Below, one piece after another: positions 1,261 through 57,436 of a stretch of DNA of 63,537 nucleotides. Below the pieces are notes generated by a model, which made no database searches, was not told the origin of the DNA, and was given only the letters and a program-made list of their open reading frames with translations. Source of the stretch: an uncultured Candidatus Actinomarina sp. (GTDB lineage: Bacteria; Actinomycetota; Acidimicrobiia; Actinomarinales; Actinomarinaceae). A program made the position numbers and the translations under genes. Each line of letters begins with the position of its first letter. The first letter of the stretch is position 1. The DNA is taken from the NCBI GenBank assembly GCA_902609285.1, contig CACLRL010000005.1, positions 1 through 63,537 of the forward strand. Reading direction: 5' to 3'.

Positions 1261-3525
1261 TTATTTAGATTTGATGTAATTTAATGCAGAACCAGCAAAA
1301 AACCAGGATATTTGATCTGAAGATAAAGAGTGATTGGCTTTAATGGTTTCTTGCTCTCCGTTTTCTTTCTCTAAGACAATCTCGATTGGAGTATCTACTT
1401 TTATATCGCTAAGACTCTTTATTGTCATTTTGTCGAATTGTTCAATTTTTTCATAATCATTTTTATCATCAAAAACTAAAGGCAAGATACCTTGTTTCTT
1501 CAAGTTTGCTTCATGAATCCTTGCAAAACTTTTGACCAAAACTACTTTGCAACCTCTAAATCTAGGTTCCATTGCTGCATGCTCTCTTGAAGATCCCTCT
1601 CCATAGTTTTCATCGCCGACAGCAACCCAGCTAACATTCTCAGCATGATAATTTTTTGCAATGTTTGGTAACGTATCAACTTCTTTTGTTAAAACATTTA
1701 CTCCATCGCCAGCATTTTCTGCGAAAGCATTATTTACTCCATTAAATAAGTTTTGAGAAATGTTTTCTAGGTGACCTCTGAATTGCAACCACTTACCGGC
1801 CGGTGATATATGATCAGTTGTACATTTTCCTTCTGCTTTCATTAATACACTCATTGATGCGTATTCACCCTCATTAGGTGCTTCAAAAGGGGTTAGTCTT
1901 TGTAATCTATTTGATTCAGGGTCAATTACCACCTCTACATCATCACCTGGTGTAGGTTGAATAAATCCCTCTAAAGTCTCTTCAAATCCTTTATCAGGTA
2001 ACTCATCTGCAATTGGTGGGTTGAGCGTTATCTCTTCTCCATCTTTACTTGTTAATGTATCGTCAAGAAAGTTGAAATCTAGCGTGCCACCAAGGGCAAG
2101 TCCTATTACTGTTTCGGGAGATCCAATAAATGATAATGTTTCTGCGTTTCCATCATTTCTTGCAGGGAAGTTTCTATTAAAGGATGAAACAATTGAATTA
2201 CTCTCTCCTTCTTTTATGTCATCTCTTTTCCATTGACCAATACAAGGACCGCATGCATTTGCTAGGACTGTTGCACCGATAGCCTCTAGATCTTTAAGAT
2301 AGCCATCACGCTCAATCGTGGCTCTTGTTTGTTCAGATCCAGGAGTAACCATTAAAGGAACTTTTGCTTTTAAACCATGCTTTGCTGCTTCTCTTGCAAT
2401 AAATGCAGCTCTTCCAATATCTTCATATGAGGAGTTTGTACATGATCCAATCAATGCACTAGAAATCTTAAGCGGATAGTCATTTGCGTTTGCATCTTCT
2501 TTTAATCCAGAGATCGGGCGTGCTAGATCAGGTGTGTGTGGTCCAACAATGTGTGGCTCTAATTCATCAAGATTAATTTCAATAACTTGATTGAAATAAT
2601 TTTCGGGATTATTTAGAACTTCTTCATCAGCAGTGAGTAAATCCATTCTAGAGTTTGCTAATTCAGCTATCTCTTTTCTACCAGTAGCTTTTAAGTAATC
2701 ACTTCCCTTTTCATCGTATGGAAAGATTGAGCATGTTGCACCAATTTCGGCACCCATATTTGTGATGGTTGCTTTACCTGTAGTTGAAATAGTTTGTGTT
2801 CCCTCGCCAAAGTATTCGACTATTGCATTTGTAGCTCCCTTAACGGTGAGAATTTCTGCTACTTTTAAAATAATATCTTTTGGTGACGTCCATCCGCTCA
2901 ATGATCCTGTTAATTTAACACCAATCAAACTTGGAATCTTTGTATTAAATGACATACCAGCCATAACATCAACAGCGTCTGCACCACCGACTCCAATGGC
3001 AATCATTGATAATCCGCCAGCATTAGGTGTATGGCTGTCAGTACCAATCATCATTCCTCCAGGAAATGCATATTGTTCGAGAACAACCTGATGAATAATT
3101 CCAGCCCCTGGTCCCCAGAATCCTATTTCATATTTTTCTGAAGCAGTTCTTAGAAAATCGAAAACCTCTTTATGTGTTTTATTTGCAACTTGAAGGTCTG
3201 TACTTGCACCCTCATATGCTTGAATTAAATGGTCACAGTGTACCGTCGTTGGTACTGCTGTTTCAGGTAAATCTGCTTGCATAAATTGTAATAAAGCCAT
3301 CTGAGCTGTTGCATCTTGCATGGCGACTCTATCTGGAGCAAAATCTCCATAATCTTCACCTTTATTCAAAGAAACAGATGAAATGTCTGTTGCATGTCCA
3401 AAAAGAAGTTTTTCAGCAAGAGTAAGAGGGGCATCTTTTCTTGCCCTTAAACTGTTTATATTCTCGGTTAACTTTTCATAAACCGAGGAAACTAAACTTG
3501 GTGGTGTTACTGATAAATCCATCAA
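1261..3525 (-). CDS. acn: Aconitate hydratase, short (754 aa) mitochondrial-type form
   Basis: Aconitase motifs are present: PDRVAMQDATAQMA, IGTDSHTPN, GVGGADAVDVMAG, LIGSCTNSSYED, ANACGPCIGQW and GDENYGEGSSREHAA. Length and block order match the ACO2-type enzyme rather than the ~900 aa AcnA/AcnB. Confidence 0.9.
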   Translation of the reverse strand: MMDLSVTPPSLVSSVYEKLTENINSLRARKDAPLTLAEKLLFGHATDISSVSLNKGEDYGDFAPDRVAMQDATAQMALLQFMQADLPETAVPTTVHCDHLIQAYEGASTDLQVANKTHKEVFDFLRTASEKYEIGFWGPGAGIIHQVVLEQYAFPGGMMIGTDSHTPNAGGLSMIAIGVGGADAVDVMAGMSFNTKIPSLIGVKLTGSLSGWTSPKDIILKVAEILTVKGATNAIVEYFGEGTQTISTTGKATITNMGAEIGATCSIFPYDEKGSDYLKATGRKEIAELANSRMDLLTADEEVLNNPENYFNQVIEINLDELEPHIVGPHTPDLARPISGLKEDANANDYPLKISSALIGSCTNSSYEDIGRAAFIAREAAKHGLKAKVPLMVTPGSEQTRATIERDGYLKDLEAIGATVLANACGPCIGQWKRDDIKEGESNSIVSSFNRNFPARNDGNAETLSFIGSPETVIGLALGGTLDFNFLDDTLTSKDGEEITLNPPIADELPDKGFEETLEGFIQPTPGDDVEVVIDPESNRLQRLTPFEAPNEGEYASMSVLMKAEGKCTTDHISPAGKWLQFRGHLENISQNLFNGVNNAFAENAGDGVNVLTKEVDTLPNIAKNYHAENVSWVAVGDENYGEGSSREHAAMEPRFRGCKVVLVKSFARIHEANLKKQGILPLVFDDKNDYEKIEQFDKMTIKSLSDIKVDTPIEIVLEKENGEQETIKANHSLSSDQISWFFAGSALNYIKSK

Positions 3526-17515: not shown

Positions 17516-18526
17516 TTAACGTGAACTAAAGTCAAAAATTACATTTAATGCATTATCAAAAGAATCAACAGCAACAATTTCAGTATTATCATCTGAAAAA
17601 ACACTTGCTTCTTCATAGTTAGCAGTTGGCACCAGAATTAAACCTGCATTTGCTCTTTTTGCCGCAATAACTTTTTGTTTTACTCCTCCAACAGGCCCAA
17701 TTGATCCATTAATTTCAATTGTGCCAGTTCCAGCAATTTTTTTTCCATTAGTAATATCATTTTCAGTTAGTAAGTTGTAAACATTTAAAGCCATCATCAT
17801 TCCGGCAGAAGGACCTCCAACATTTCCAGTTTGAATATCTACATCAAAAGGAAAAGTAAATTGTTGATTAGGTGTAGAAGCTAAAAATCCAACCATTGGT
17901 TCATTTTTGTACTCTACATGTTCTATAAGATTTGTTTCAATAATTATTTCTTGTTTATTTCTAATCAGCCCAATATTTACTAAGTCACCTATTTCATAAG
18001 TTCTTAACTTTGATATGAATTCAGTAGTTGATCTAACAAGTTCACTGTTTATAGAAACAATTAAATCATCTTTAATAAGTTTGTCTTTTACTGGAGAGTC
18101 ATCAAGTAGGCCTACAACCAAAACTCCGTCACCCTCTGATTGTACGTCATAATCCAAAGAATTAAGTGCTACAGCGATTGCAACATTTTCAGACGTCATC
18201 ATATTTTGCATACTTATTTCAGATAATTCTTGTGGTGTCACACCATCAGGTAAAATCACTTCTCTAGGATATAAATCGATTTGGCTGTTTAATCTAGCCC
18301 ATACATATACAAAATAATTAGCTTCATCTCTTCGAACAGTTAATTGATAAAGATTCCCATCATATTCATAAGTTTGGGCATTTTCGATTTCAATATCCCA
18401 TTGATATGGTGGCCCAGGTGACATAAAATAATATTCTGATTTAGCAAAACCGAATGGAAAAATAACAATTAGATAAGTGATAAGAATAATTTTTAAAAGT
18501 TTATTTTTTTGGAAAAATTTATTCAT
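17516..18526 (-). CDS. PDZ domain / Lon-like (S16) serine protease, YlbL/Rv3194c-like
   Basis: Signal/TM segment, a central PDZ domain, and a C-terminal Lon protease-like region (GPSAGMMMAL..GTGTI..G.IGPVGGVKQK). Confidence 0.75.
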   Translation of the reverse strand: MNKFFQKNKLLKIILITYLIVIFPFGFAKSEYYFMSPGPPYQWDIEIENAQTYEYDGNLYQLTVRRDEANYFVYVWARLNSQIDLYPREVILPDGVTPQELSEISMQNMMTSENVAIAVALNSLDYDVQSEGDGVLVVGLLDDSPVKDKLIKDDLIVSINSELVRSTTEFISKLRTYEIGDLVNIGLIRNKQEIIIETNLIEHVEYKNEPMVGFLASTPNQQFTFPFDVDIQTGNVGGPSAGMMMALNVYNLLTENDITNGKKIAGTGTIEINGSIGPVGGVKQKVIAAKRANAGLILVPTANYEEASVFSDDNTEIVAVDSFDNALNVIFDFSSR

Positions 18527-18556: not shown

Positions 18557-18587
18557 AAAAAAAGAGCCGGATAAACCGGCTCTTTTT
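18557..18587 (-). terminator. Rho-independent terminator after the ABC operon
   Basis: Stem AGAGCCGG / CCGGCTCT with a 5 nt loop, flanked by A and T runs, lying 17 nt downstream of the SBP stop codon. Confidence 0.7.
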
Positions 18588-18603: not shown

Positions 18604-20004
18604 TTATGAACAAGGTCCTACAGACCAATCATAAGCGCTAGCGGATGGACCTACATAGTCTTTTTTAACTACGACAGCTCCACTACCAACACTTCCGTCT
18701 GGTTTTGTAATGGTACTTGCAACATCAGGTAAGCCAGATCCTAGTTTCTTTTCAGGCATCATACCGTCAGAACTAACTGTAACATTTGTTGCTGCTCTTC
18801 TAATACCTGCTCTAGTAAGATCTCCACCTTTTAGTGCACCTTCAAGTACACCTTTAAGATGATATTGTGAACCCCATCCTCCAACGAAGAATGTGCTTGC
18901 ACTATCAGTTATTTGACCCAATGTTTGTCTCATTGTTGCGTGACCAACAGTGTCAGCCTCATAAGGTGCAATACCAAAAGACATTGCATAAATGAGTCCT
19001 GATTCAAATAGACCTTTTACAGCTGATCCTTCAGCCACAAAAGCATCGTTGTAAGATGTTCCGAGGAACATTGCAAAAGGAGTGACTCCTTGTTGTGCTG
19101 CTCCACCAGCAACTTGAGGTGCTACGGCTAATCCAGTTGCTAAGAAATAAGCATCAACTGGTTTTGTAACCAGTAAACCAACGGCTTGAGTTACATCAAA
19201 CTCTGTTGGAGGTGCTAAATATTCCCATGCAACTTCAACGCCTGCATTCGCTGCTGCTGCTTTGATTCCAAATGCGAAATCCTTACCATAGTCACTTTCG
19301 TAACCGATAATTCCAACAGTGTTTATATCAACTAAACCACCTGTTAGAGGTCCCGCATTTGCAGATGCCCAATCCATAGCATTCATTCCGTCTGCACAAT
19401 ATTGTGTTCCGAATTCAATTACTGTAGAGGCATCTACGCCTTTATATGCCCAACCTGACCACCAGCTCATTGGTACTGCTACCATGTCATCTTCATTTAA
19501 ATTATCTAAAATAAATAATGTCTGCGGTGTTCCAAGTGACATTGAGAAAGCTGCAACTGAATCTTTTAATGAGTTGTAACCTTCTAAATGTTTTTGTGGA
19601 TTGTATGACGCATCAAATCCTTCTCGAATTGCCACACTATAATCTCCAATTCCACCAGTTGAATTAGCCCAGAGCCAAAATGCTCTTTGTCCAATATCAA
19701 GAGCTGGCCCAGCAGCTCCGAAAGGTCCTGAATAGTCATTTAACATTCCTAGATAAATACAACCTTTGGTTGGATCTGCTCCAGTTGGAATGTTGGATAT
19801 AACTTCGGGACAAGCCTCTTCTGTAATTCCAACACCTGTTTTTACTGTGCCGGCTGTTGTTACAGCTGGTGAGTCAAGTGCTTCTGTTACTTCTTCTGCA
19901 ACTACCTCTTCCTCAGAAGTTTCTTCGGTAGCTCCACCACAAGCAACAAGAACTAAGGCTAGAATTGAAAAAATTATGATTCCTTGCTTACGCAATGGTT
20001 TCAT
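18604..20004 (-). CDS. ABC transporter substrate-binding lipoprotein (Liv/HAAT-type)
   Basis: Lipobox LVACGG and a 466 aa periplasmic-binding-protein-like sequence. It is the last gene of the livFG-acs-livHM operon, with a strong SD (AAGGGGG). Confidence 0.8.
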   Translation of the reverse strand: MKPLRKQGIIIFSILALVLVACGGATEETSEEEVVAEEVTEALDSPAVTTAGTVKTGVGITEEACPEVISNIPTGADPTKGCIYLGMLNDYSGPFGAAGPALDIGQRAFWLWANSTGGIGDYSVAIREGFDASYNPQKHLEGYNSLKDSVAAFSMSLGTPQTLFILDNLNEDDMVAVPMSWWSGWAYKGVDASTVIEFGTQYCADGMNAMDWASANAGPLTGGLVDINTVGIIGYESDYGKDFAFGIKAAAANAGVEVAWEYLAPPTEFDVTQAVGLLVTKPVDAYFLATGLAVAPQVAGGAAQQGVTPFAMFLGTSYNDAFVAEGSAVKGLFESGLIYAMSFGIAPYEADTVGHATMRQTLGQITDSASTFFVGGWGSQYHLKGVLEGALKGGDLTRAGIRRAATNVTVSSDGMMPEKKLGSGLPDVASTITKPDGSVGSGAVVVKKDYVGPSASAYDWSVGPCS

Positions 20005-27867: not shown

Positions 27868-28326
27868 ATGAGCTTAAATATTGGCGATTCCATACCTGAA
27901 TTTTCATTAATAAATTATGATAAAGAAAAGTTTGAATCTAAAGATTCTCTAGGAACAAAAACAATGTTTGTTTTTATGCCTTTCCCTTTTAGCAGTGTTT
28001 GTGATGGAGAAATCTGTGAACTACGTGATAATTTGGATTCTTTTAAATCTGCAGAAACTGAAACAGTTATGATAACAGTCGCTGCTCGTCCAACAAATGA
28101 AGCTTGGGCAAAACATAATCAGATAGAGTTTCCAATTCTTGCAGATTTTTGGCCACATGGTGAAGTCTCAAAAATGTTTGGATGTTTTAATGAAGGTGCT
28201 GGAATATCGTTACGATACACCTACATAACTGACGAAAATAATGTTATTACTGAAATCATTAAAAGTGATGAGATTGGAGTAGAAAGAGATTTTCAGGCCT
28301 ACAAGCAAAAATTTAGTATTTCTTAG
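27868..28326 (+). CDS. ahpE: AhpE-like 1-Cys peroxiredoxin
   Basis: FPFSSVCDGEICELRD matches the AhpE/Prx active-site region. The SD is AAAGGAG. Confidence 0.8.
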   Translation: MSLNIGDSIPEFSLINYDKEKFESKDSLGTKTMFVFMPFPFSSVCDGEICELRDNLDSFKSAETETVMITVAARPTNEAWAKHNQIEFPILADFWPHGEVSKMFGCFNEGAGISLRYTYITDENNVITEIIKSDEIGVERDFQAYKQKFSIS

Positions 28327-28604
28327 CCAACTTCTCTGATATCACTGTCATGTATTCTTTGGCGTTTGATTCGTCTTCTTTCTCTTTCAGATAAACCGCC
28401 CCATATACCAAACTTTTCGGAGTTTTCTATTGCGAATTCAAGACAATCTTCTTGTACAGAGCACGCCCTGCAAATAGATTTAGCTTTTCTTGTAGAAGCT
28501 CCCCTTTCAGGAAAAAAAATATCCGCGTCAGCTCCTTTACAATTTGCTTCTTCGGTCCAGGAAGGCATTCCACCTAAAAGTTCTTCGATTATTGATTTTT
28601 CCAC
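28323..28604 (-). CDS. whiB: WhiB-family Fe-S transcriptional regulator
   Basis: Four Cys residues (C-x..-CRAC-x5-C) plus the GIWGG turn and a basic tail. Confidence 0.9.
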   Translation of the reverse strand: MEKSIIEELLGGMPSWTEEANCKGADADIFFPERGASTRKAKSICRACSVQEDCLEFAIENSEKFGIWGGLSERERRRIKRQRIHDSDIREVG

Positions 28605-28729
28605 ATCACCCCTTCTATATTGAAAAACTAAATCACATAAGTGTAATTTATTATTGTAAAGTCGCTATGTCAAGAGGCTTATATCTTAAATAATTAGATG
28701 TAATATTACTTTTATAGGATAATTAATTA

Positions 28730-29185
28730 ATGGCATATCAAAAAATTGTATCAACAGGTTCTGTTTACAAAGGAAAAACTGGGATGTGGCTATATGTGTT
28801 TCATAGGGTCACTGGAGTTGGACTTTTTGGATATTTGCTCCTTCACATTATCTCAACCGCACTGATTCTTTTAGGGCCAGAGATATATGAAGGTGCCGAG
28901 GCAGTTTATAAAAATTTTTATTTTAGAGTTGCTGAAATTGGGCTTATGGCTGCTGTTTTAGGGCATGCAATCAACGGATTAAGAATAATTACGGTAGATT
29001 TGTGGAGTAAAGGATCAGATTATCAAAAACAGCTTAATTTTGTCTCATTATTTATTTTCCTTGTAATTTTTATTCCAACAACATATAAAATGACTACTTC
29101 TTATTTTGATTTATGTCTCCAAAAAAGTTCAAGTGGGACAACTATTGTTGACTGTCTTATAAGGCCTATACCGGATTGGAAATGA
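28730..29185 (+). CDS. sdhC: Succinate dehydrogenase cytochrome b subunit
   Basis: 151 aa membrane protein with haem-ligand His residues; first gene of sdhCDAB. Confidence 0.75.
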   Translation: MAYQKIVSTGSVYKGKTGMWLYVFHRVTGVGLFGYLLLHIISTALILLGPEIYEGAEAVYKNFYFRVAEIGLMAAVLGHAINGLRIITVDLWSKGSDYQKQLNFVSLFIFLVIFIPTTYKMTTSYFDLCLQKSSSGTTIVDCLIRPIPDWK

Positions 29186-49121: not shown

Positions 49122-49927
49122 TTGATCCGTATTTTCCTAATATTTTAAATTCTTTTGCAACTTGACCTAAATTATCTTTTAGAAGCTGATCGATTTTTGT
49201 ATCAGAGTTTTGATAATCGACATAGAACTTATATTCCCATGGGGATCCAAGAATTGGTCTTGATTCTAACTTAGTCAAATTCAATTTAAGTACATCAAAA
49301 AACCGTAAGAGCTTTCAACAAAGAACCTGGCTCGTCTTGTGCTACCAGAATCGCTGAACGAAGGTTTTCATCTTCTTTAATCGGTGGTGGCGTCTTTCCA
49401 GTTAGAAAAAATCTTGTGTAATTTTCTTCATGATTTGAAATATTTTTTTCAATTATTGTAAATCTTTCATCATTATTAAAATGCTCTCCTGCAATCGCTC
49501 CAATCTCTTCTGATTTATTGTTAAGTAAACTTAAAACACCTCCTGCAGTATCAAATACTGGTTGTAATTCTATGTCTAGTTTATTTAAATATTTACTACA
49601 CTGCTGTAAGGCTTGTGGGTGAGAAATTATCTTTTTCAAATTTTGTTTTTGTGTCCCTGCTAATCCAATTAGGGCATGATTAATTTTCTTTTTAACTTCT
49701 AAAAATATTTCAAGTTCGTATTCAATTAAACTTTCATAAGCCTCGATTACAGTTCCAACAAGAGAGTTTTCAATTGGCAAAAGTCCAAAACCATCATTTG
49801 AAGCATTTATAGAGACATCTTGAAAAGTTTTACAAGAAATTAATTCTGAATCTGGGAACATTTCAAGTAAAACCGATTCCGAATAAGAACCTTCTGAACC
49901 TTGATAATATATTTTTTTATTTTTCAT
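49111..49927 (-). CDS. pheA: Prephenate dehydratase, interrupted by a 1-nt homopolymer frameshift (ORF track sees 49295..49927)
   Basis: The PDT domain is intact, then stops at ..LKALTVF*. Removing one T from the minus-strand T6 run (plus A6 at 49297-49302) restores the ACT domain ..FDVLKLNLTKLESRPILGSPWEYKFYVDYQ..KILGKYGSINL* (271 aa). Confidence 0.85.
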
Positions 49928-50346
49928 TTAAATAATCTATACCCATCTTATATCCATTAACCCCATGACCTATAAATGATTTCTCGCAAATGTCATTAAT
50001 TAAATTAGTTTTTCTAAACGATTCACGTTCTTTTATATCACTTATGTGAACTTCAATGATAGGAACTGAAAGAAGTAACAAAGAATCTCTCAATGAAACA
50101 CTTGTATGGGTGTAGGCACCAGGATTTACGATGACTCCATCAATTTTCTCATTAATTATTTCTTGTATGTAATCACAGATTTCGCCCTCATGATTTGATT
50201 GAAAAAAAAACCAGATCATTAGTTTTTTTTGCATGTTCTTCAAGTTCACTAACTAACTCTTGATAAGTTGTAGTGCCATATTTTGAAATTTCTCTCTTAC
50301 CTAAAAAGTTCAAATTTGGACCATTAATGATTACTATTTTACGCAT
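49917..50346 (-). CDS. aroQ: 3-dehydroquinate dehydratase type II, interrupted by a 1-nt homopolymer frameshift (ORF track sees 49917..50249)
   Basis: The ATG at 50346 (overlapping the aroB stop) gives MRKIVIINGPNLNFLGKREISKYGTTTYQEL..KKTNDLVFF, then leaves the frame. Removing one base from the minus-strand T9 run (plus A9 at 50202-50210) continues QSNHEGE..NPGAYTHTS..IEVHISD (142 aa). Confidence 0.85.
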
Positions 50347-51337
50347 TGGTTAAAACCTCTAATAAGTCGTTAATCGAAAAGTCAATTAACACTGGCTCTT
50401 GAATATTTTTAATAAGAACAAATTTAACAACATCACTTGTCACTTTTTTATCGTTTGAAATTATCTCTTTTAACTCTGATTGATTGCTATTGAAACTGTA
50501 TTCCGTTTTCATTGACTGTTTGTTTAAAAATGACTTAAATTCATCTCTGATTGAACTATTAAGATTAAATTTACTCTCCGATATTTCAAGCCCTTTTAAC
50601 ATTCCAATTGCAACGGCTTGTCCATGAGAAATAGAATAATTTGAGTCCTTTTCGATCAGATGGCCGATTGTATGGCCTAAGTTTAAAAACATTCTTTCAT
50701 TACTTTCACGTAAGTCATTTTTTAAAATGTTGTACTTTACTTGAATACTTTTTTTAATTATTTCTTCTAGATTGTTGAGTTTATCTTGGTATATCATTTC
50801 AATAATTTCTTTGTCACCTAAAAAGCCTGCCTTTAATGATTCAATAATTCCATTATTTATTTCAATATCTGATAAAGAATCTAAAAACTCTGTACAAATA
50901 AATATTTTTTCTGGAATGAAGAATGTACCAATTTGGTTTTTGCCAAATTCATTATTGAACCCTGTTTTTCCTCCATGTGCTGCGTCAACCATACCAAGGA
51001 ATGTTGAAGGAACCAACGATAAATTTGCTCCTCTTTTAAAGGTGCTTGTAGCAAAACCTACTAGGTCACTCAACACGCCTCCACCTATCCCAATTATTTT
51101 TGAACTTCTATCAAGCGACTCTGAAAACATTATTTTCCAAATTTTTTGAATTGTATTTAAATCTTTAGTGGATTCATTAATTTCTATTTCAAAAATCTTA
51201 AATTTTGGATCTAGATTAATAATTGAAGACAACTTTGAATCAATAAATATTACATGCTTCTCCTGATTGATAAAATTTTTTAGTTGACTATCAAGATCAT
51301 CAAATTTATTTGAATAATGTATTTCAGATAACTTCAT
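50339..51337 (-). CDS. aroB: 3-dehydroquinate synthase
   Basis: IGIGGGVLSDLVGFA, the NLGHTIGH metal site and HGQAVAIGM. Confidence 0.9.
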   Translation of the reverse strand: MKLSEIHYSNKFDDLDSQLKNFINQEKHVIFIDSKLSSIINLDPKFKIFEIEINESTKDLNTIQKIWKIMFSESLDRSSKIIGIGGGVLSDLVGFATSTFKRGANLSLVPSTFLGMVDAAHGGKTGFNNEFGKNQIGTFFIPEKIFICTEFLDSLSDIEINNGIIESLKAGFLGDKEIIEMIYQDKLNNLEEIIKKSIQVKYNILKNDLRESNERMFLNLGHTIGHLIEKDSNYSISHGQAVAIGMLKGLEISESKFNLNSSIRDEFKSFLNKQSMKTEYSFNSNQSELKEIISNDKKVTSDVVKFVLIKNIQEPVLIDFSINDLLEVLTNA

Positions 51338-51833
51338 TTTTTAGCCAACTATTTTTAATTATGATTTCAGCAATATTTTTAATTTTTTTATCCGAAATTT
51401 CTAAAATATGATTTGATTGATTGTATAAATCTTCTCTTGATTGAAATAGTTTATAAATTTTTTCTTTTCCTTCTTTTACTAAAGGTCTTTCAGTATTTTG
51501 GATCTGATTCCATAAATTTTCAAAAGTATCTTTCAGATAAAAAGTAAATCCGTTATTTTTAAGCTCATCAAATATATTTTTTATTTCTAAAGATCCTCCT
51601 CCAAGAGCAACTACAGAATCATTTTTGGGTAACATTTGGAATGTTTCTAATTCGATTTGCCGAAAATATTTTTCGCCTTTTGATTCAAAGATTTTACTTA
51701 TACTTCCATGTTTCTTTTCTATATCTTCATCTAGATCAAAAGTATTACTTTGAATCTTTTGTCTTATTTTTTTCAATACAGATGTTTTTCCGCAACCCAT
51801 AAACCCAACGAGGTAAATATTATTATATTTCAT
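51324..51833 (-). CDS. aroK: Shikimate kinase
   Basis: Walker A GFMGCGKTS and ALGGGS. Confidence 0.9.
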   Translation of the reverse strand: MKYNNIYLVGFMGCGKTSVLKKIRQKIQSNTFDLDEDIEKKHGSISKIFESKGEKYFRQIELETFQMLPKNDSVVALGGGSLEIKNIFDELKNNGFTFYLKDTFENLWNQIQNTERPLVKEGKEKIYKLFQSREDLYNQSNHILEISDKKIKNIAEIIIKNSWLKNEVI

Positions 51834-52998
51834 ATTTCATATTCCAGGTTTTATTATCTAGATCAAACTCGTCTAAATGCAGCTTTGAAATGTTTTCAAA
51901 GTTTTTTGTTATTTCTTTTTTGCTATCCCCCCCAGTTTTTATTAGTAAATTCTTAAGAATTTCTAATGCCATTGCGCTCTCAAATATGGGGACAGCTCTT
52001 GGGACGGCACAGGTATCAGATCGTTCATATACTGTCTCTGTTTCATTTTTAGTTGATAAATCAATACTTTTGATAGGAGTCAAAGTTGTGCTGATCGGTT
52101 TTAAGTAAGCTTTTACAACTATATCCTCCCCATTTGTCATCCCTCCTTCAAAACCTCCTAAATTATTTGATTCTTTTTTAATGTTTTCTTGGTCAAGGAA
52201 ATACTGATCTTGAACCTCAGTTCCATAATTTTTAGATACTTCTATCCCATTACCAATTTCTACTGCTTTTACACTTTGTATAGACATAAAAATTCGCGCC
52301 ATATTTGCATCTAATTTTCTATCCCAATGAACGAAACTACCCAGTGTTGGAGGTACGCCTGTTGCAATTGTGGTAATAGAACCTCCAAGAGTATCCTTCT
52401 TTTTTCTTGCAAGTTTTATTTCATTTTCCATCTCTTTGGAAATTTTGTCATCTGGACACGACACTGAAGATTCTGTAACTTTATTTTGCAGATTTTTAAT
52501 GCCATCTGTTCCTTTATATGAATACTCCAGTAATCCAATTCCTGAAACATATCCACAAATATGTATGTCAAAATTTTCAAGTATTTGTGCAGCTATTGCT
52601 CCAATTGCACATCTCATTGCAGTTTCCCTGGCACTTGATCTTTCAAGAATTAGGCGAATATCCTTTGCATCATACTTTGCAGTTCCAACTAGGTCAGCAT
52701 GACCAGGTCTAGGAACTACATATGGATCAATATCTTTATCTTTCCAATTTTTCCAATCGTTGTTCTTTATTTTTAATGTAATTGGTCCACCAGTTGTGAG
52801 ATTATTAATTATCCCCGAAGAAATCTCTACCTGATCGGATTCAATATTCATTCTTCCACCAGACCCCAAACTTTTTTGTCTACGTTGAAGAAAACTGTCT
52901 ATGTATTCTTTTGTAACAAGAAAACCTGATGGTAATCCCTCAATTATCCCCGTTAGCTCTGGCCCATGACTCTCGCCTGCAGTTAAAAATCTAATCAT
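51823..52998 (-). CDS. aroC: Chorismate synthase
   Basis: MIRFLTAGESHGP, RPGHAD and SARETA signatures. Confidence 0.95.
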   Translation of the reverse strand: MIRFLTAGESHGPELTGIIEGLPSGFLVTKEYIDSFLQRRQKSLGSGGRMNIESDQVEISSGIINNLTTGGPITLKIKNNDWKNWKDKDIDPYVVPRPGHADLVGTAKYDAKDIRLILERSSARETAMRCAIGAIAAQILENFDIHICGYVSGIGLLEYSYKGTDGIKNLQNKVTESSVSCPDDKISKEMENEIKLARKKKDTLGGSITTIATGVPPTLGSFVHWDRKLDANMARIFMSIQSVKAVEIGNGIEVSKNYGTEVQDQYFLDQENIKKESNNLGGFEGGMTNGEDIVVKAYLKPISTTLTPIKSIDLSTKNETETVYERSDTCAVPRAVPIFESAMALEILKNLLIKTGGDSKKEITKNFENISKLHLDEFDLDNKTWNMKYEI

Positions 52999-53779
52999 TT
53001 TTGTTCACCAATAATTTGTATAACTCATCATATATATCTAATACTTGTAAGTTAAGGTTTGTCCATATGTTAAATGATAAGATTGCCTGACATATGAGCA
53101 TTCCAATACCATTGTATGAATTCACAGAATCAAGTAATGGTTTAAAAAAATTACCAGTATTTCCATATCCTATATTCAAAAATAAATCTAGGTTAGTAAA
53201 TTTGTTTACATCTAAGTCCAAAGAAAGGTTATTCAAATGTGACATACCAATAGGAGTTGTATTGATAAGAAAATTTATCTCCGATCCAATATCTTCTGCC
53301 TCTTTATAAGAAATAGTATCCTCAGTCACATTTCTGCTAGCAATATGCGTACTCGATGAATTACTTGATAATGCATACCTAATTGCTTTTGAGCTTCCAC
53401 CACTGCCTAAGACAAGTATATTTTTATCTTTCCAATCATAATCTATTTTATTTAAGAAAAATAAGAAGCCTTCATAGTCAGTGTTATAGTATTCAATACT
53501 TTCACCACTAGATTTAACAGTATTGATTGCTCCTATTGATTGAGCATGTTCATCTACGATTGAATTTATATTTAATCCTAAAATATTTTCTTTATGTGGG
53601 ATTGTAATATTGTATCCGTCTAGTCTCTTATTAAGATTGTGAATATTTTTCTCATCTATGTTCTCAATTTTTAATAATTCATAATTACCTTCAAGCTGAG
53701 TCATATTTAATAATGATTTGTGAATAAAGGGAGAATATGTCTTTTCAAGGGGCCAACCTAAAACACCAAAATTATTCAT
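52991..53779 (-). CDS. aroE: Shikimate 5-dehydrogenase
   Basis: SPFIHK, NITIPHK, GAINT and LGSGGSSKA motifs. Confidence 0.85.
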   Translation of the reverse strand: MNNFGVLGWPLEKTYSPFIHKSLLNMTQLEGNYELLKIENIDEKNIHNLNKRLDGYNITIPHKENILGLNINSIVDEHAQSIGAINTVKSSGESIEYYNTDYEGFLFFLNKIDYDWKDKNILVLGSGGSSKAIRYALSSNSSSTHIASRNVTEDTISYKEAEDIGSEINFLINTTPIGMSHLNNLSLDLDVNKFTNLDLFLNIGYGNTGNFFKPLLDSVNSYNGIGMLICQAILSFNIWTNLNLQVLDIYDELYKLLVNKND

Positions 53780-55025
53780 TGATCTCAGCTCCTAATTCTT
53801 TTAAATCCTCAAAAAAAGAAGGATATGAATCTTTAATGCATTCTTTATTATCAGGGATTATTTTTTTTCCAAGAGCTATATTCGCAATTATTGCTGTCAT
53901 TGCAATTCTGTGATCATCAAAAGTTTTAATTAAACCATCTCGGAGATCTTGAATGCCTTTAATCTCAAATCCATCATCATAAACTTCAATTTTCCCGCCT
54001 AATTCAAGAATAAATTTTTTCATGACATCTAACCTATCTGATTCTTTGACTTTCAGTTCTTCTGCTCCAACAAGTTTTGTAATACCAATAGCTTGGGATG
54101 CTAAAAAAGTGAAAATTGGAATTTCATCAATAAAATCGGCCACTTCCTCTTTTGTCACAGTCGTACCATTTAGAGTTGATTTTTTTACCTTAATATCTCC
54201 AATTACTTCATTATTTTCTTCATTAATGTTCACAATTTCAATATTTGCACCCATCCTCTTTAAAATCTTTACAAACCCAAGTCTCCTCTCATTAATTAAC
54301 ATATTTTCAAGTATTATTTCTTTTCCTTTGAGCACGCCAAGTGCAATTAGGAATGCTCCTGACGATATATCACCAGGTATTGAAATGTTTAAAGGTTTAA
54401 GATTATTTGTTGGAGATACAGTAATAGTGTTACCAAGTCTCAGTATGTTTGCACCCATCGCAATTAACATTCTTTCCGTATGATCTCTTGTGGCAACTGT
54501 TTCTTCAATTAACGTTGGTTCACTATGGTACAAAGAGGCAATAATTAATGCGCTTTTAACCTGAGCACTAGGAACAAGAGTATTTTGAAAATTAAATGAA
54601 TATTCTGATGATTTAAATTTGATTGGAAGAAAAGAATTCTTTATATTAATTGAAGCTCCGTTTTGAACTAACAAATCTGTAATTCTGTTCATTGGTCTTT
54701 TATTCAACTGGGGGCTTCCTTTTAGTGTTGACGAAAAATTTTGTTTAGATAATAGACCAATTAATAATCTTGCAGTGGTTCCTGAATTCATGGCATTAAG
54801 ATCTTTTTTTGGTTCTTTCAGGCCGTTGAGTCCGTTACCAATTATGGAAACTGTATCATTTAACTTGATATCGATACCCATTTGCTCAATTATCTTTAAG
54901 GTAGCCTTTGTGTCTTCACTCATTAATAAATTTTGTATATTTGAAGTTCCGTCAGCTAACGCAGCAAATATTATTGCTCGATGAGAAATAGACTTATCTC
55001 CAATGAGAGCAACATTACCAGACAA
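53772..55025 (-). CDS. aroA: 3-phosphoshikimate 1-carboxyvinyltransferase (EPSP synthase)
   Basis: GDKSISHR, NSGTTARL and DHRIAM motifs. Confidence 0.95.
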   Translation of the reverse strand: MSGNVALIGDKSISHRAIIFAALADGTSNIQNLLMSEDTKATLKIIEQMGIDIKLNDTVSIIGNGLNGLKEPKKDLNAMNSGTTARLLIGLLSKQNFSSTLKGSPQLNKRPMNRITDLLVQNGASINIKNSFLPIKFKSSEYSFNFQNTLVPSAQVKSALIIASLYHSEPTLIEETVATRDHTERMLIAMGANILRLGNTITVSPTNNLKPLNISIPGDISSGAFLIALGVLKGKEIILENMLINERRLGFVKILKRMGANIEIVNINEENNEVIGDIKVKKSTLNGTTVTKEEVADFIDEIPIFTFLASQAIGITKLVGAEELKVKESDRLDVMKKFILELGGKIEVYDDGFEIKGIQDLRDGLIKTFDDHRIAMTAIIANIALGKKIIPDNKECIKDSYPSFFEDLKELGAEINE

Positions 55026-55048
55026 TAATCTGCTAAATAATTTTAATT

Positions 55049-55882
55049 TTAACTTAATGGTCGTTCTCCAAATTTATCTGACAATGCTCTTCTCCATTCC
55101 ACTGACGAAGTGAGATAATCAATTAACTCATTTTTTTCTTGTAAAGACATCAACGATGATATTTCTTCGATTAGTGCGATAAGAAAATTATTTATATTTT
55201 TTGAGTTTGAGTTGTACATGTCTATTATCATCTCTGGGTTTGTCCTTGTAAGCCTTGTTGCCCCATCAAACCCTCCAGCTGCTAATCCCATTATTTCCTC
55301 AATTTCATAATCTTTCTTAGCAATACCCACAAGTGCAGAACTTATCAAGTGAGGTAGATGGCTCGTAATCGATAATATCTCATCATGCTTTTTCCTATCA
55401 ATCCATACTTCTTTACAATCTAAAATATTTATAAACGCTGATGCAATTTCTCTTGCTTTATCATCGGTTGAATTAGTTTCGCAAAGAAGAAATGTTGCAT
55501 TTTTGTACATTTCTGGATGTGGCTCCCAATTTGTATTATCAGCTAATCCACACATTGGGTGTCCCCCAATTGCAGGAATATTTGAATTGTCCATTAAATC
55601 ACATATGGACTCTTTGGTACCTCCAATATCAATTATCAGCTCAGATTTATCAATCTCATGTTCTTTTGATAAGAAAGAAATAATATTGTTTATAGGCATC
55701 GAAAGAATAGTCAGATCATACTTTTCAGCATTTGACTTAATATTTATACCAAACTCTTCTGCTCTTTTCTCTACATCAGGATTAATATCTTCGCCATAAA
55801 CATTTAGTCCTTTATTGACTAGATTAATTCCTAAGTTTGCACCCATTAATCCAAGGCCAATTATTTTTATATTTTTGATCAT
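55049..55882 (-). CDS. tyrA: Prephenate dehydrogenase
   Basis: IIGLGLMGANLG Rossmann motif and GGHPMCG catalytic region. Confidence 0.85.
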   Translation of the reverse strand: MIKNIKIIGLGLMGANLGINLVNKGLNVYGEDINPDVEKRAEEFGINIKSNAEKYDLTILSMPINNIISFLSKEHEIDKSELIIDIGGTKESICDLMDNSNIPAIGGHPMCGLADNTNWEPHPEMYKNATFLLCETNSTDDKAREIASAFINILDCKEVWIDRKKHDEILSITSHLPHLISSALVGIAKKDYEIEEIMGLAAGGFDGATRLTRTNPEMIIDMYNSNSKNINNFLIALIEEISSLMSLQEKNELIDYLTSSVEWRRALSDKFGERPLS

Positions 55883-56898
55883 AATGTTAAAGATCGACCC
55901 ACAACATCAGCCATTAAACTTACTTTCTTACCAAGCTCTACCAACTCTATTGGCGTTAGGGCTTGAGGGCCATCACATAAAGCTTCATCCGGTCTTGGAT
56001 GAATTTCGATTAATAATCCATCTGCTCCTGCAGCTATTGAAGCTAGTGCAATAGGCGCTACTAAGTTGTTTGCTCCAGTTCCGTGACTTGGATCTGCAAT
56101 AACAGGTAAATGAGTGTTCATCTTCAAATAAGGTATTGCATTAATGTCAAACGTATTTCTTGTCGCAGTTTCGAAAGTCCTAATTCCTCGCTCGCATAAA
56201 ATAACATTTTCATTTCCTCTGCTTAATATATATTCAGAAGCTAAAAGCAATTCCTCAAGAGTTGCACTCATACCTCTTTTCAATAAAACAGGAAGCTTCG
56301 ATTCACCAACAGCTTCTAATAACTTAAAATTTTGCATATTTCTTGCTCCGATTTGAAGAACATCTACATAATTTTCCATCATTTGTAAATGTTGGATATC
56401 CATAATTTCACTAAACAAAGGGAGTTTGTGTTTATCAGCTGCCTCTTTCAACAATACTAAGCCTTCTTCTCCTAAACCCTGAAAACTATAAGGTGATGTT
56501 CTAGGTTTAAAAGCTCCTCCTCTAAGGCCATTTCCTCCTGCTTGTATTACAGCTTCTGCAGTCTCTAAAGTCTGCTCTCTATATTCGGCACTATCTGGCC
56601 CAGCTATAAAAGCAAGTTCTTTACCTCCAATAGTAAGATCTTTTATCTTTATTTCTGTATTTGTATCTTTATATGTTTTACTTGCAAGCTTGTAAGATCT
56701 CCCAATTGGGATAACTTCGTGTACGTTGTCAAGTAAACGCATTACACCTCTGTTATCTTCGATAACTTTTCCATGCACTGCAACGACAGTCCTTTCAACA
56801 CCATAAAGTACTTTTGGCTCATGACCTTGTTCAATAGCTTTTACTTTTACTTTCTCTATATCTTCTTCTGTAGCTGCTTGTTTCATAACTACTATCAA
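55879..56898 (-). CDS. aroF: 3-deoxy-7-phosphoheptulonate (DAHP) synthase, class I-beta with an N-terminal ferredoxin-like regulatory domain
   Basis: LRGGAFKPRTSPYSFQGLGEEGL, QIGARNMQNF, KRG and DPSH motifs. The N-terminal LIVVMKQAATEEDIEKV resembles the Thermotoga-type regulatory domain. I place the start at TTG 56898, 6 nt after AGGAGG, rather than at the ORF-track ATG 56943, which would run through the terminator. Confidence 0.9.
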   Translation of the reverse strand: MIVVMKQAATEEDIEKVKVKAIEQGHEPKVLYGVERTVVAVHGKVIEDNRGVMRLLDNVHEVIPIGRSYKLASKTYKDTNTEIKIKDLTIGGKELAFIAGPDSAEYREQTLETAEAVIQAGGNGLRGGAFKPRTSPYSFQGLGEEGLVLLKEAADKHKLPLFSEIMDIQHLQMMENYVDVLQIGARNMQNFKLLEAVGESKLPVLLKRGMSATLEELLLASEYILSRGNENVILCERGIRTFETATRNTFDINAIPYLKMNTHLPVIADPSHGTGANNLVAPIALASIAAGADGLLIEIHPRPDEALCDGPQALTPIELVELGKKVSLMADVVGRSLTL

Positions 56899-56910
56899 TT
56901 TGTTCCTCCT

Positions 56911-56938
56911 AAAAAAAAATCGGGCTTTTGCCCGATTT
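56911..56938 (-). terminator. Intrinsic terminator inside the aro operon (attenuator terminator)
   Basis: The RNA AAAUCGGGC-AAAA-GCCCGAUUU forms a 9 bp stem. The U-run totals 9 U, and the AGGAGG of DAHP synthase follows it directly. Confidence 0.7.
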
Positions 56939-56962
56939 GACACAATGTAACTTTAGGGCAGC

Positions 56963-57004
56963 TTATATATGCGCTCTAAAGTAAAAGTATGTGTTAGTTT
57001 TCAT
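56963..57004 (-). promoter_or_regulatory. Candidate leader peptide ORF (13 aa, MKTNTYFYFRAHI) of a Phe/Tyr attenuator
   Basis: ATG at 57004 to TAA at 56965-56963. Four consecutive aromatic codons (UAC UUU UAC UUU) lie 62 nt upstream of the terminator U-run, and the last Phe codon sits in a hairpin arm. There is no obvious SD. Confidence 0.55.
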
Positions 57005-57045
57005 TGTGGTAATGTTAGCACGTAATTTTCTTTTGGAAAGAATTT

Positions 57046-57387
57046 TTATCTATCAGGACGTAAATTTTTTGCTTCACCCAAATACACATGATTTGGTTCG
57101 ATATTATCTTGATATATTACTAAAACTCGAATGCAACCTAATAAATCACCTTCAATGTTTGGTGCTAAAGAATCGAGTGCAGGTATTTGGTCATATCCAA
57201 GATCTCTAACTGCTTTGGCCGGGAAAGCAGCATTCAAGTCTTTTGTAACTGTAAATAGTACCGAAACAACTTTAGAAATTACTAAATTGTTTTTTTCTAT
57301 AATCTCAGTAAATAAAATTTTTGATGATTTTAAAATATTTTCTTCACTGTTTTCAACTGATGCTATTGCACCTCTTATTCCAATCAT
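57046..57387 (-). CDS. aroH: Chorismate mutase, AroH class
   Basis: MIGIRGAI..NILKSSKILFTEIIEKNNL..LFTVTKDLNAAFPAKAVRDLG..CIRVLVIY..VYLGEAKNLRPD is collinear with B. subtilis AroH. I place the start at ATG 57387, because the ORF-track start 57426 lies inside the groEL terminator. Confidence 0.85.
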   Translation of the reverse strand: MIGIRGAIASVENSEENILKSSKILFTEIIEKNNLVISKVVSVLFTVTKDLNAAFPAKAVRDLGYDQIPALDSLAPNIEGDLLGCIRVLVIYQDNIEPNHVYLGEAKNLRPDR

Positions 57388-57400
57388 GACATATAATGAT

Positions 57401-57436
57401 AAAAAAAAAGAGTGGTTTTTGTCCACTCTTTTTTTT
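57401..57436 (-). terminator. Rho-independent terminator after groEL
   Basis: The RNA A-run-AGAGUGG-ACAAAAA-CCACUCU-U9 begins 15 nt after the groEL stop. Confidence 0.7.

Follow-up and report, generated by a model that had tools for sequence, protein, structure and literature searches.

A probable leader-peptide attenuator at the head of the aromatic amino-acid operon of Candidatus Actinomarina

Among uncultured marine actinobacteria, Candidatus Actinomarina is abundant and has a streamlined genome of about 1 Mb. How such a cell might govern its synthesis of phenylalanine and tyrosine is the question raised by a 147-nucleotide (nt) spacer (57045..56899) in contig CACLRL010000005.1 of assembly GCA_902609285.1; the whole 63,537-nt stretch analysed is called here the window. 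The spacer lies between aroH and the gene of 3-deoxy-D-arabino-heptulosonate 7-phosphate (DAHP) synthase, the first of a nine-gene operon assigned by Pfam (DAHP synthase, tyrA, aroA, aroE, aroC, aroK, aroB, aroQ and pheA; 49295..56898), whose open reading frames (ORFs) overlap or are tightly packed. All features described are on the minus strand unless indicated otherwise. An initial annotation of the sequence had proposed that a short ORF rich in Tyr and Phe codons and an intrinsic terminator form a ribosome-mediated attenuator in this spacer, and its coordinates for the mini-ORF, the terminator, the Shine–Dalgarno (SD) sequence, the TTG start and the spacer all match our reading of the minus strand. 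The comparative and folding analysis presented here makes it likely that the spacer holds a transcription attenuator of this type, probably leaderless, in which a ribosome senses the charging of Phe- and Tyr-tRNA and so controls the nine-gene operon.

The leader ORF (57004..56963) consists of 13 codons and a stop codon, AUG AAA ACU AAC ACA UAC UUU UAC UUU AGA GCG CAU AUA UAA, and encodes the peptide MKTNTYFYFRAHI. The regulatory codons, UAC UUU UAC UUU (Tyr-Phe-Tyr-Phe; 56978..56989), include UAC, the minor tyrosine codon (170 occurrences versus 471 of UAU). Relatives were collected by a DAHP synthase protein scan with one genome per species, which gave 44 loci with upstream sequence (72–100% identity); 37 spacers were aligned, and 29 distinct leaders served for masked folding. 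Conservation of the mini-ORF and of its aromatic codons, which had been suggested as a check, is complete: the ORF is kept in all 44 related Actinomarina loci and in three metagenome contigs, with the pattern M-[KN]-x(2-4)-[YF]-F-Y-F-x-x-H-I-stop, the stop being UAA or UAG. Across the 44 loci and the window there are 15 distinct peptide variants, among them MKINTYFYFRAHI, MKLNNTFFYFSEHI, MKLNNVYFYFSEHI, MKTVTTFFYFREHI, MNLNNTYFYFSEHI, MKMNNSYFYFSEHI, MKTMNTFFYFSEHI and MKLNTYFFYFGAHIK. In every aromatic run four or more Tyr/Phe codons follow one another (YFYF, FFYF or YFFYF), and Trp never occurs, a composition that fits an operon holding both tyrA and pheA. Within the run, substitutions are only from Tyr to Phe or synonymous (UAC/UAU), never to a non-aromatic residue, and the His codons, like those for Tyr, change synonymously. 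As the first two aromatic codons are unpaired, in an internal loop of the predicted structure, their restriction to aromatic residues reflects a constraint on coding and not on RNA structure. The sequence ATGAA at the start of the leader is invariant and the other N-terminal codons vary freely, the distance from the AUG to the aromatic run differing among relatives by one whole codon only.

This conservation stands out against the divergence of the adjacent gene. In species whose DAHP synthase genes are saturated at fourfold-degenerate sites (34–42%), the leader, counted from its AUG to the last U of the tract, is 81–87% identical to that of the window, and the conservation of the leader RNA exceeds even the amino-acid identity of DAHP synthase (73–84%). 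The leader of the most distant relative, L037, is still 74% identical. At none of 100 non-Actinomarina DAHP synthase loci (22 + 78), searched over 250–400 nt upstream, was a mini-ORF with at least four aromatic codons found.

Upstream of the leader, an extended −10 box, TGCTAACAT (TGnTAnnAT; 57012..57020), ends 7 nt before the AUG, and a −35-like hexamer, TTTCCA (57034..57039), is found 16 nt upstream of the −10 hexamer; the aligned spacers identify both as putative promoter elements. The −10 columns T30, G31, T33, A34, A37 and T38 are invariant in the 37 aligned spacers, and the distance from the box to the AUG is 6–8 nt where scored (7 nt in 27 of 36 rows), with the same spacing elsewhere in the alignment. 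In relatives the −35-like hexamer is mostly TTTGCA or TTGGCA, T11 and T12 being invariant and the consensus TTTGCAA conserved, and it falls under the threshold of the consensus promoter scan; the remaining upstream promoter spacer is merely 46–68% identical. A purine-rich SD sequence before the leader AUG was found neither in the window, as the initial annotation had cautioned, nor in any relative. Since the conserved −10 box is only 6–8 nt from the AUG and this SD sequence is lacking, transcription probably starts at the AUG or 1 nt before it, which would make the leader mRNA leaderless. The conserved promoter and this putative start place the leader at the head of its own transcript and not simply inside a super-operon. 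The initial proposal of an attenuator within the aromatic super-operon therefore holds in that the element directly heads the aro operon, but the leader has its own promoter and aroH forms a separate upstream unit. Altogether, the invariant AUG, the whole-codon length change, the substitutions limited to Tyr and Phe and the −10 spacing suggest, indirectly, that the leader ORF is translated.

In several relatives (L012, L016, L017, L020, L030, L032-L035, L014 and L023) an in-frame ATG occurs within the −10 box itself (TATGAT and similar). It would extend the leader ORF by 3–7 codons, but with the −10 box in use as proposed this ATG should not be transcribed.

The spacer ends in an intrinsic terminator (56911..56938), detected by scans and by folding, with a 9-base-pair (bp) stem (AAAUCGGGC/GCCCGAUUU), an AAAA loop and a run of nine U. 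The hairpin, AAATCGGGC-AAAA-GCCCGATTT, spans 56938..56917 and the U run continues to 56911; the calculated stability in the window is −13.7 kcal/mol. In a consensus scan it is the sole strong terminator-like site in 51–63.5 kb, and a stricter hairpin-plus-U scan gave four strong sites in the whole window. The terminator is present in all relatives, with one double compensatory pair (U-A to G-C in L037), and hairpin-plus-U terminators are also found at ordinary gene ends of the same genome. Its U tract abuts the SD sequence of DAHP synthase, AGGAGG (56910..56905), which is followed by the TTG start (56898..56896; TTG, ATG or GTG in the same column of the relatives), so that no promoter would fit between terminator and SD sequence. 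All transcripts of the nine genes thus have to read through the terminator, which favours conditional termination.

Alternatively, the hairpin could be a constitutive terminator of aroH, or the end of a small RNA gene, with an aromatic ORF that arose by chance and an aro operon expressed through unregulated leakage. This would agree with the fact that aroH has no other terminator, with the chance-level frequency of aromatic-run mini-ORFs in the window (given below) and with the succession of promoter, 94 nt and terminator, a signature also of small RNA genes. However, it would leave the nine-gene operon without a promoter of its own behind a U tract that abuts the SD sequence, and it accounts neither for the conserved promoter between aroH and the terminator nor for an ORF and aromatic run kept in 44 of 44 loci despite saturated neutral sites and seen in 0 of the 100 unrelated loci. 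We regard this explanation as barely credible. Another possibility is a leaderless sensory ORF acting mainly on the translation of DAHP synthase, given that the architecture proposed here is that of the leaderless mycobacterial polycysteine short ORFs, which control the downstream ribosome-binding site through RNA structure. Yet the predicted fold of the leaderless transcript leaves most of the DAHP synthase SD sequence unpaired (P 0.74–0.84), so that sequestration of this SD sequence is unsupported, and the conserved element between the ORF and the SD sequence is a canonical hairpin with U9, similar to those that end ordinary genes in the same genome. Control exerted chiefly on translation is thus very improbable, and transcription attenuation is the reading examined in what follows.

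Attenuation requires mutually exclusive structures. RNAalifold applied to the 37 spacers returned two conserved helices, the terminator and a hairpin termed 1:2 (CUUUAG.G.GC/GCCCUAAAG), in which every position is paired in 35–37 of the 37 sequences and the GCCC of segment 2 is sequestered. Variation among the aligned spacers is very low, and the terminator change in L037 is the only double compensatory one in the two helices. The 5′ arm, segment 1 (ACUUUAG plus GCGC; 56971..56982), comprises the last Tyr/Phe codons and the two codons that follow, and the 3′ arm, segment 2 (GCUGCCCUAAAGU; 56950..56962), comes directly after the stop codon. The two complementarities on which the initial annotation had built, ACUUUAG/CUAAAGU (56982..56976 with 56956..56950) within 1:2 and UGCCC/GGGCA (56960..56956 with 56933..56929) between segment 2 and the terminator, are read as stated. 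In folds of the free RNA, 24 of the 29 leaders have the GCCC of segment 2 paired with upstream sequence. The predicted energy of 1:2 with its apical pairs in the window is −10.6 kcal/mol, reaching −15.3 kcal/mol with an outer helix, P0, which had been missed in the originally proposed set of structures, although its 1:2 hairpin and terminator are borne out by conservation. In the minimum free energy (MFE) structure of the window, P0 joins ACACA of leader codons 4–5 (56990..56994) to UGUGU (56940..56944), which ends 1 nt before the terminator.

P0 was found by folding the distinct leaders singly. It appears in every clade with a different sequence and register (ACACA/UGUGU in the window, ACAAUAC/GUAUUGU, ACAACGUA/UACGUUGU, GAACAC/GUGUUU and UUGAACA/UGUUCAA), its 3′ strand ending 1–3 nt before the terminator. 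In a chimera test with 11 clade representatives, the stabilisation of the closed state was −6.8 kcal/mol with the cognate 3′ spacer versus −5.5 kcal/mol with swapped spacers, and 185 of 20000 permutations did as well as the cognate arrangement; in 7 of the 11 clades the cognate spacer outdid 92% or more of its shuffled versions. A comparison of cognate and non-cognate simple duplexes discriminated weakly (−5.9 versus −5.1). The chimera test thus lends moderate support to P0 as a predicted helix. In two relatives, L034 and L035 (leader region about 2895..3000), segment 2 is CCCUUUAG instead of CCCUAAAG, with the loss of two inner 1:2 pairs, and the MFE structure contains an alternative helix, ACAUACU/AGUAUGU, which includes the first Tyr codon.

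The complete spacer folds with an MFE of −37 kcal/mol (z = −5.4 versus shuffles), part of which relies on its non-conserved 5′ end. Two pairings were discarded. One, in the MFE structure of a 153-nt spacer, joins the 5′ end to the U tract and the SD sequence; it is not conserved and involves sequence upstream of the putative transcription start. The other, between CUAAAG and the U-tract/SD junction (UUUAG) and judged by eye, involves a junction that is not conserved in relatives.

The competing structure pairs UGCCC of segment 2 with the core of segment 3, GGGCA (56929..56933), which belongs to the terminator 5′ arm and includes the first base of the loop. Folding was repeated with the nucleotides under a ribosome masked, the footprint being taken to reach 12 nt beyond the first A-site nucleotide on the 3′ side. 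The terminator forms in 29 of 29 free RNAs and also in 29 of 29 when the stop codon is occupied by a ribosome. When a ribosome stalls on an aromatic codon before the 3′ arm of the terminator is exposed, GCCC:GGGC pairs with P > 0.5 at all four stall positions in 25 of the 29 leaders; in the window, the antiterminator is dominant under this masking (P ≥ 0.99). The spacing of the elements is likewise conserved. Between the stop codon and GCCC there are 3 nt in 28 of the 29 leaders, so that a terminating ribosome would cover segment 2, and between the last aromatic codon and GCCC there are 21 nt in 28 of the 29, a gap that would let a stalled ribosome spare segment 2 while covering the 5′ strands of both closed-state helices, P0 and 1:2. 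The logic proposed initially, for which masked folding had been suggested as a check, is in this way reproduced in the 29 distinct leaders.

A mechanism can be proposed from these predictions. Transcription would start from the conserved extended −10 promoter at the AUG or 1 nt before it, as conservation and spacing suggest, and the leader of 13–15 codons would be translated without an SD sequence. With an ample supply of charged Tyr- and Phe-tRNA, the ribosome would reach the stop codon and its footprint would cover the GCCC of segment 2; should it depart, the long closed hairpin of P0 and 1:2 would form instead. Either way the 9-bp terminator is predicted to fold, and transcription would end at U9, before the SD sequence. 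A ribosome stalled on any Tyr or Phe codon would cover the 5′ strands of P0 and 1:2 and leave segment 2 free, and UGCCC is predicted to pair with GGGCA upon emergence of the terminator 5′ arm. This pairing, acting kinetically only, may delay or prevent the folding of the terminator and allow RNA polymerase into the operon.

Several observations weigh against this model. In the whole window, ATG mini-ORFs of up to 40 codons with at least four consecutive aromatic codons number 8, versus 6.1 ± 2.4 expected from Markov-simulated windows, the DNA having about 33% G + C, in which U-rich codons are cheap; the mini-ORF alone is not unusual by chance, and its significance therefore lies in its position and conservation. 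Similarly, the strict combination of an extended −10 box, 6–8 nt and a start codon is not enriched in the window (4 versus 5.8 expected), so that the argument for a leaderless start is drawn from the leader locus itself. The antiterminator has only 4–6 bp, close to the 5 bp named as a caveat in the initial annotation, and is worth −6.7 kcal/mol against the −13.7 kcal/mol of the terminator; after 4–5 nt of its 3′ arm have emerged, the terminator is favoured despite a stalled ribosome. As the terminator wins thermodynamically, antitermination would need a kinetic trap, and its dynamic range may be small. Antitermination in the classical trp model is also kinetic, and there are fewer pairs to displace in the Actinomarina leader. 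The GCCC/GGGC core is invariant, with 98% of cells pairable and zero covariation, which neither supports nor refutes the pairing; in a single case, L037, five antiterminator pairs are retained differently, as GCCCG/CGGGC for UGCCC/GGGCA, which agrees with the model. Finally, in this same relative (leader 2893..3000) a 2-nt deletion after the aromatic run and a 1-nt insertion shift the frame of the last codons and leave the nucleotides GCACAUAU unchanged; the peptide still ends in His-Ile(-Lys), with a stop codon that overlaps GCCC. This frame change indicates that conservation in the 3′ part of the ORF concerns the RNA and the placement of the stop codon, not the peptide.

The frame change in L037 would also be expected if the terminator were operated by a protein, a ligand or a tRNA binding P0 and 1:2, the ORF being an untranslated by-product of U-rich RNA. 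The very high nucleotide conservation throughout the leader, including the apical loop GCACAUAUAAG, the missing SD sequence and the short antiterminator are in keeping with such control. It does not explain, however, why the first two aromatic codons, although unpaired, vary only from Tyr to Phe or synonymously, why the AUG is invariant at a fixed distance from the conserved −10 box, or why the stretch that separates the AUG from the aromatic run changes in length only by one whole codon, and the invariant spacing from the stop codon to GCCC is that expected from a ribosome footprint. Nor did a search of Rfam reveal a known binding element: there was no hit at gathering score in the whole window, and over 56850..57100 at E ≤ 10 just two chance-level eukaryotic hits, by which a T-box, a riboswitch and the known leader families (Phe, Trp, His, Leu and Thr) were rejected. 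We consider control independent of translation unlikely, and sensing by a translating ribosome remains the preferred reading.

More divergent leaders were found neither in an additional, alignment-based genome scan nor in a metagenome scan queried with the most divergent relative, which returned just the known leader variants; there is a gap between 72% and about 55% identity. The Actinomarina DAHP synthases form a clade of at least 72% identity, the next relatives having at most 63% over partial matches and about 50–55% over the full length, and these belong to Bacteroidota, Ignavibacteria, Acidobacteriota, Bacillota and other phyla, not to other Actinomycetota. The distribution may hint at a horizontal acquisition of this type of DAHP synthase. 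A Bacillota metagenome-assembled genome (L118, JAEWMS010000033.1) has a mini-ORF, MKAFLYFYTVVLLHKFN, with a Tyr-Phe-Tyr run, about 85 nt ahead of the gene of a distantly related DAHP synthase; this ORF could encode an aromatic leader peptide of independent origin or be a product of chance.

A more far-reaching form of the attenuator model can be envisaged, in which the element is an independently evolved, minimal leaderless attenuator of 94 nt with a 5-bp antiterminator, acts as the single control point of the entire Phe/Tyr pathway in a bacterium among the most streamlined of free-living ones, terminates the aroH mRNA as well and releases a 94-nt RNA that could act in trans. The attenuator-derived RNA rnTrpL acts in trans in Sinorhizobium. 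In its entirety this version is a speculative one, to which we give limited credence.

The role of the terminator with respect to aroH follows from the layout of the locus, where the genes assigned by Pfam are arranged on the minus strand in the order groES, groEL, aroH, spacer and aromatic operon. Directly 3′ of the groEL stop (57451), the hairpin scan detected a terminator, AAAAGAGTGG-ACAAAAA-CCACTCTTTT with a U run (57432..57398, hairpin 57432..57406), whose stem varies compensatorily in relatives (GAGUGG/CCACUC, GAGCGG/CCGCUC and AGGUGG/CCACCU). This conserved terminator directly after groEL separates the groESL unit from aroH. The nominal aroH start, GTG 57426, falls within it; the true start is ATG 57386 (MIGIRGAI...), where the Pfam match begins, giving an AroH-type chorismate mutase (CM_1) of 113 amino acids (57046..57386) that ends at a TAA stop codon (57048..57046). 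No SD sequence precedes this ATG, and in the window 8 nt separate it from the end of an upstream TATCAT box; TATAGT is found about 11 nt upstream in other clades, and most relatives have a −10-like box but lack an SD sequence before the aroH start, so aroH may be leaderless or nearly so. L037 has an SD-like AAGGA motif before aroH instead. The locus is therefore made up of three separate units: groESL, aroH, and the leader with the aro operon. As aroH has no terminator of its own upstream of 56938..56911, its transcripts run into the leader, where the AUG is internal and has no SD sequence. The closed, terminating state of the RNA is then expected by default, and the hairpin of the attenuator probably doubles as the terminator of aroH. 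The DAHP synthase encoded downstream combines a type I domain (DAHP_synth_1) with an N-terminal ferredoxin-like domain (DAHP_snth_FXD).

Two further sites in the window were recorded during the scans. A 16-codon ORF, MPLINYPIKVILHLII (28736..28686), preceded by an extended −10-like sequence, TGATACAAT, and located upstream of a WhiB-like gene (28604..28323), was rejected as a second leader candidate; it has no amino-acid bias and no terminator, and is probably due to chance. A strong 10-bp hairpin at 18585..18561 (both strands), with A and U runs at its flanks, lies between the minus-strand genes 18604..20004 and 17516..18526 and resembles a bidirectional terminator.

If the attenuator operates as proposed, a single cis-acting sensor of 94 nt would govern the nine-gene pathway of shikimate, Phe and Tyr synthesis with no regulatory protein, which would fit the economy of streamlined genomes, and leader-peptide control of DAHP synthase by aromatic codons would extend beyond Corynebacterium. 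The regulator is of a known type and would not surprise a specialist, although none is known to have been reported from the Actinomarina lineage. Being leaderless and very compact, it could serve as a test case for the minimum working length of an antiterminator, and the leader could be used as a marker of aromatic amino-acid limitation in marine metatranscriptomes. The analysis also corrects the annotation of the locus with respect to the leader ORF, so far unannotated, and the start of aroH. In the literature library searched, no paper was found to link Actinomarina to attenuation or leader peptides, and a comparative survey of 2005 reported no Phe/Tyr RNA elements in Actinobacteria (PMC1262725).

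The predicted arrangement of the leader is that of the attenuators of pheA (pheL), pheST (pheM) and trp (summarised in PMC11802643), in which the regulatory codons are in or next to segment 1, the stop codon stands where a ribosome terminating on it covers segment 2, the 1:2, 2:3 and 3:4 pairings are mutually exclusive, and an intrinsic terminator precedes the first gene. Unlike these enterobacterial systems, the Actinomarina leader appears to be leaderless instead of SD-led, matches no Rfam leader family and is far more compact (94 nt in all, AUG and U tract included), with an antiterminator of just 4–6 bp and the extra outer helix P0. Its target is also different, namely DAHP synthase and the whole pathway, whereas the DAHP synthase genes of Escherichia coli are under TyrR/TrpR repression (PMC11802643). 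A leaderless sensory ORF has precedents in Actinobacteria: the ilvB leader of Corynebacterium diphtheriae has its transcription start site at the leader start codon (PMC5784534), that of C. glutamicum is made without a ribosome-binding site (Morbach 2000, as cited in PMC4046766), and the mycobacterial polycysteine ORFs are leaderless and unmask the downstream ribosome-binding site (bioRxiv 10.1101/834739). The Actinomarina leader shares with them the lack of an SD sequence, the consecutive codons for the regulated amino acid and, if leaderless, the position of the sensory ORF at the 5′ end of the transcript; it differs from the mycobacterial ORFs in the predicted accessibility of the downstream SD sequence, in its canonical terminator and in the amino acids that it would sense.

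The closest described case is aroR-aroF of C. glutamicum, named in the initial annotation and indeed present in the literature, where the aroR leader (Phe-Tyr-Phe) precedes aroF and read-through reportedly rises under Phe limitation (Neshat et al. 2014, as reported in PMC11802643, PMC7356990, PMC4046766 and PMC3890552). Compared on the basis of these descriptions, the two would be functional analogues: both belong to Actinobacteria and place a short ORF with consecutive Phe/Tyr codons directly upstream of a DAHP synthase gene that heads an operon. The Actinomarina leader differs in its lineage (Acidimicrobiia, Actinomarinales) with a DNA of about 33% G + C, in its four or five aromatic codons instead of three, and in its operon, which holds the entire common pathway together with tyrA and pheA. 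The Actinomarina DAHP synthase has a ferredoxin-like domain, and AroF of C. glutamicum is not known to have one. Beyond the aroR case, the Actinomarina leader would add a putative leaderless start, a length of only 94 nt, a very short antiterminator and the predicted helix P0, and the two leaders are likely to be of independent origin.

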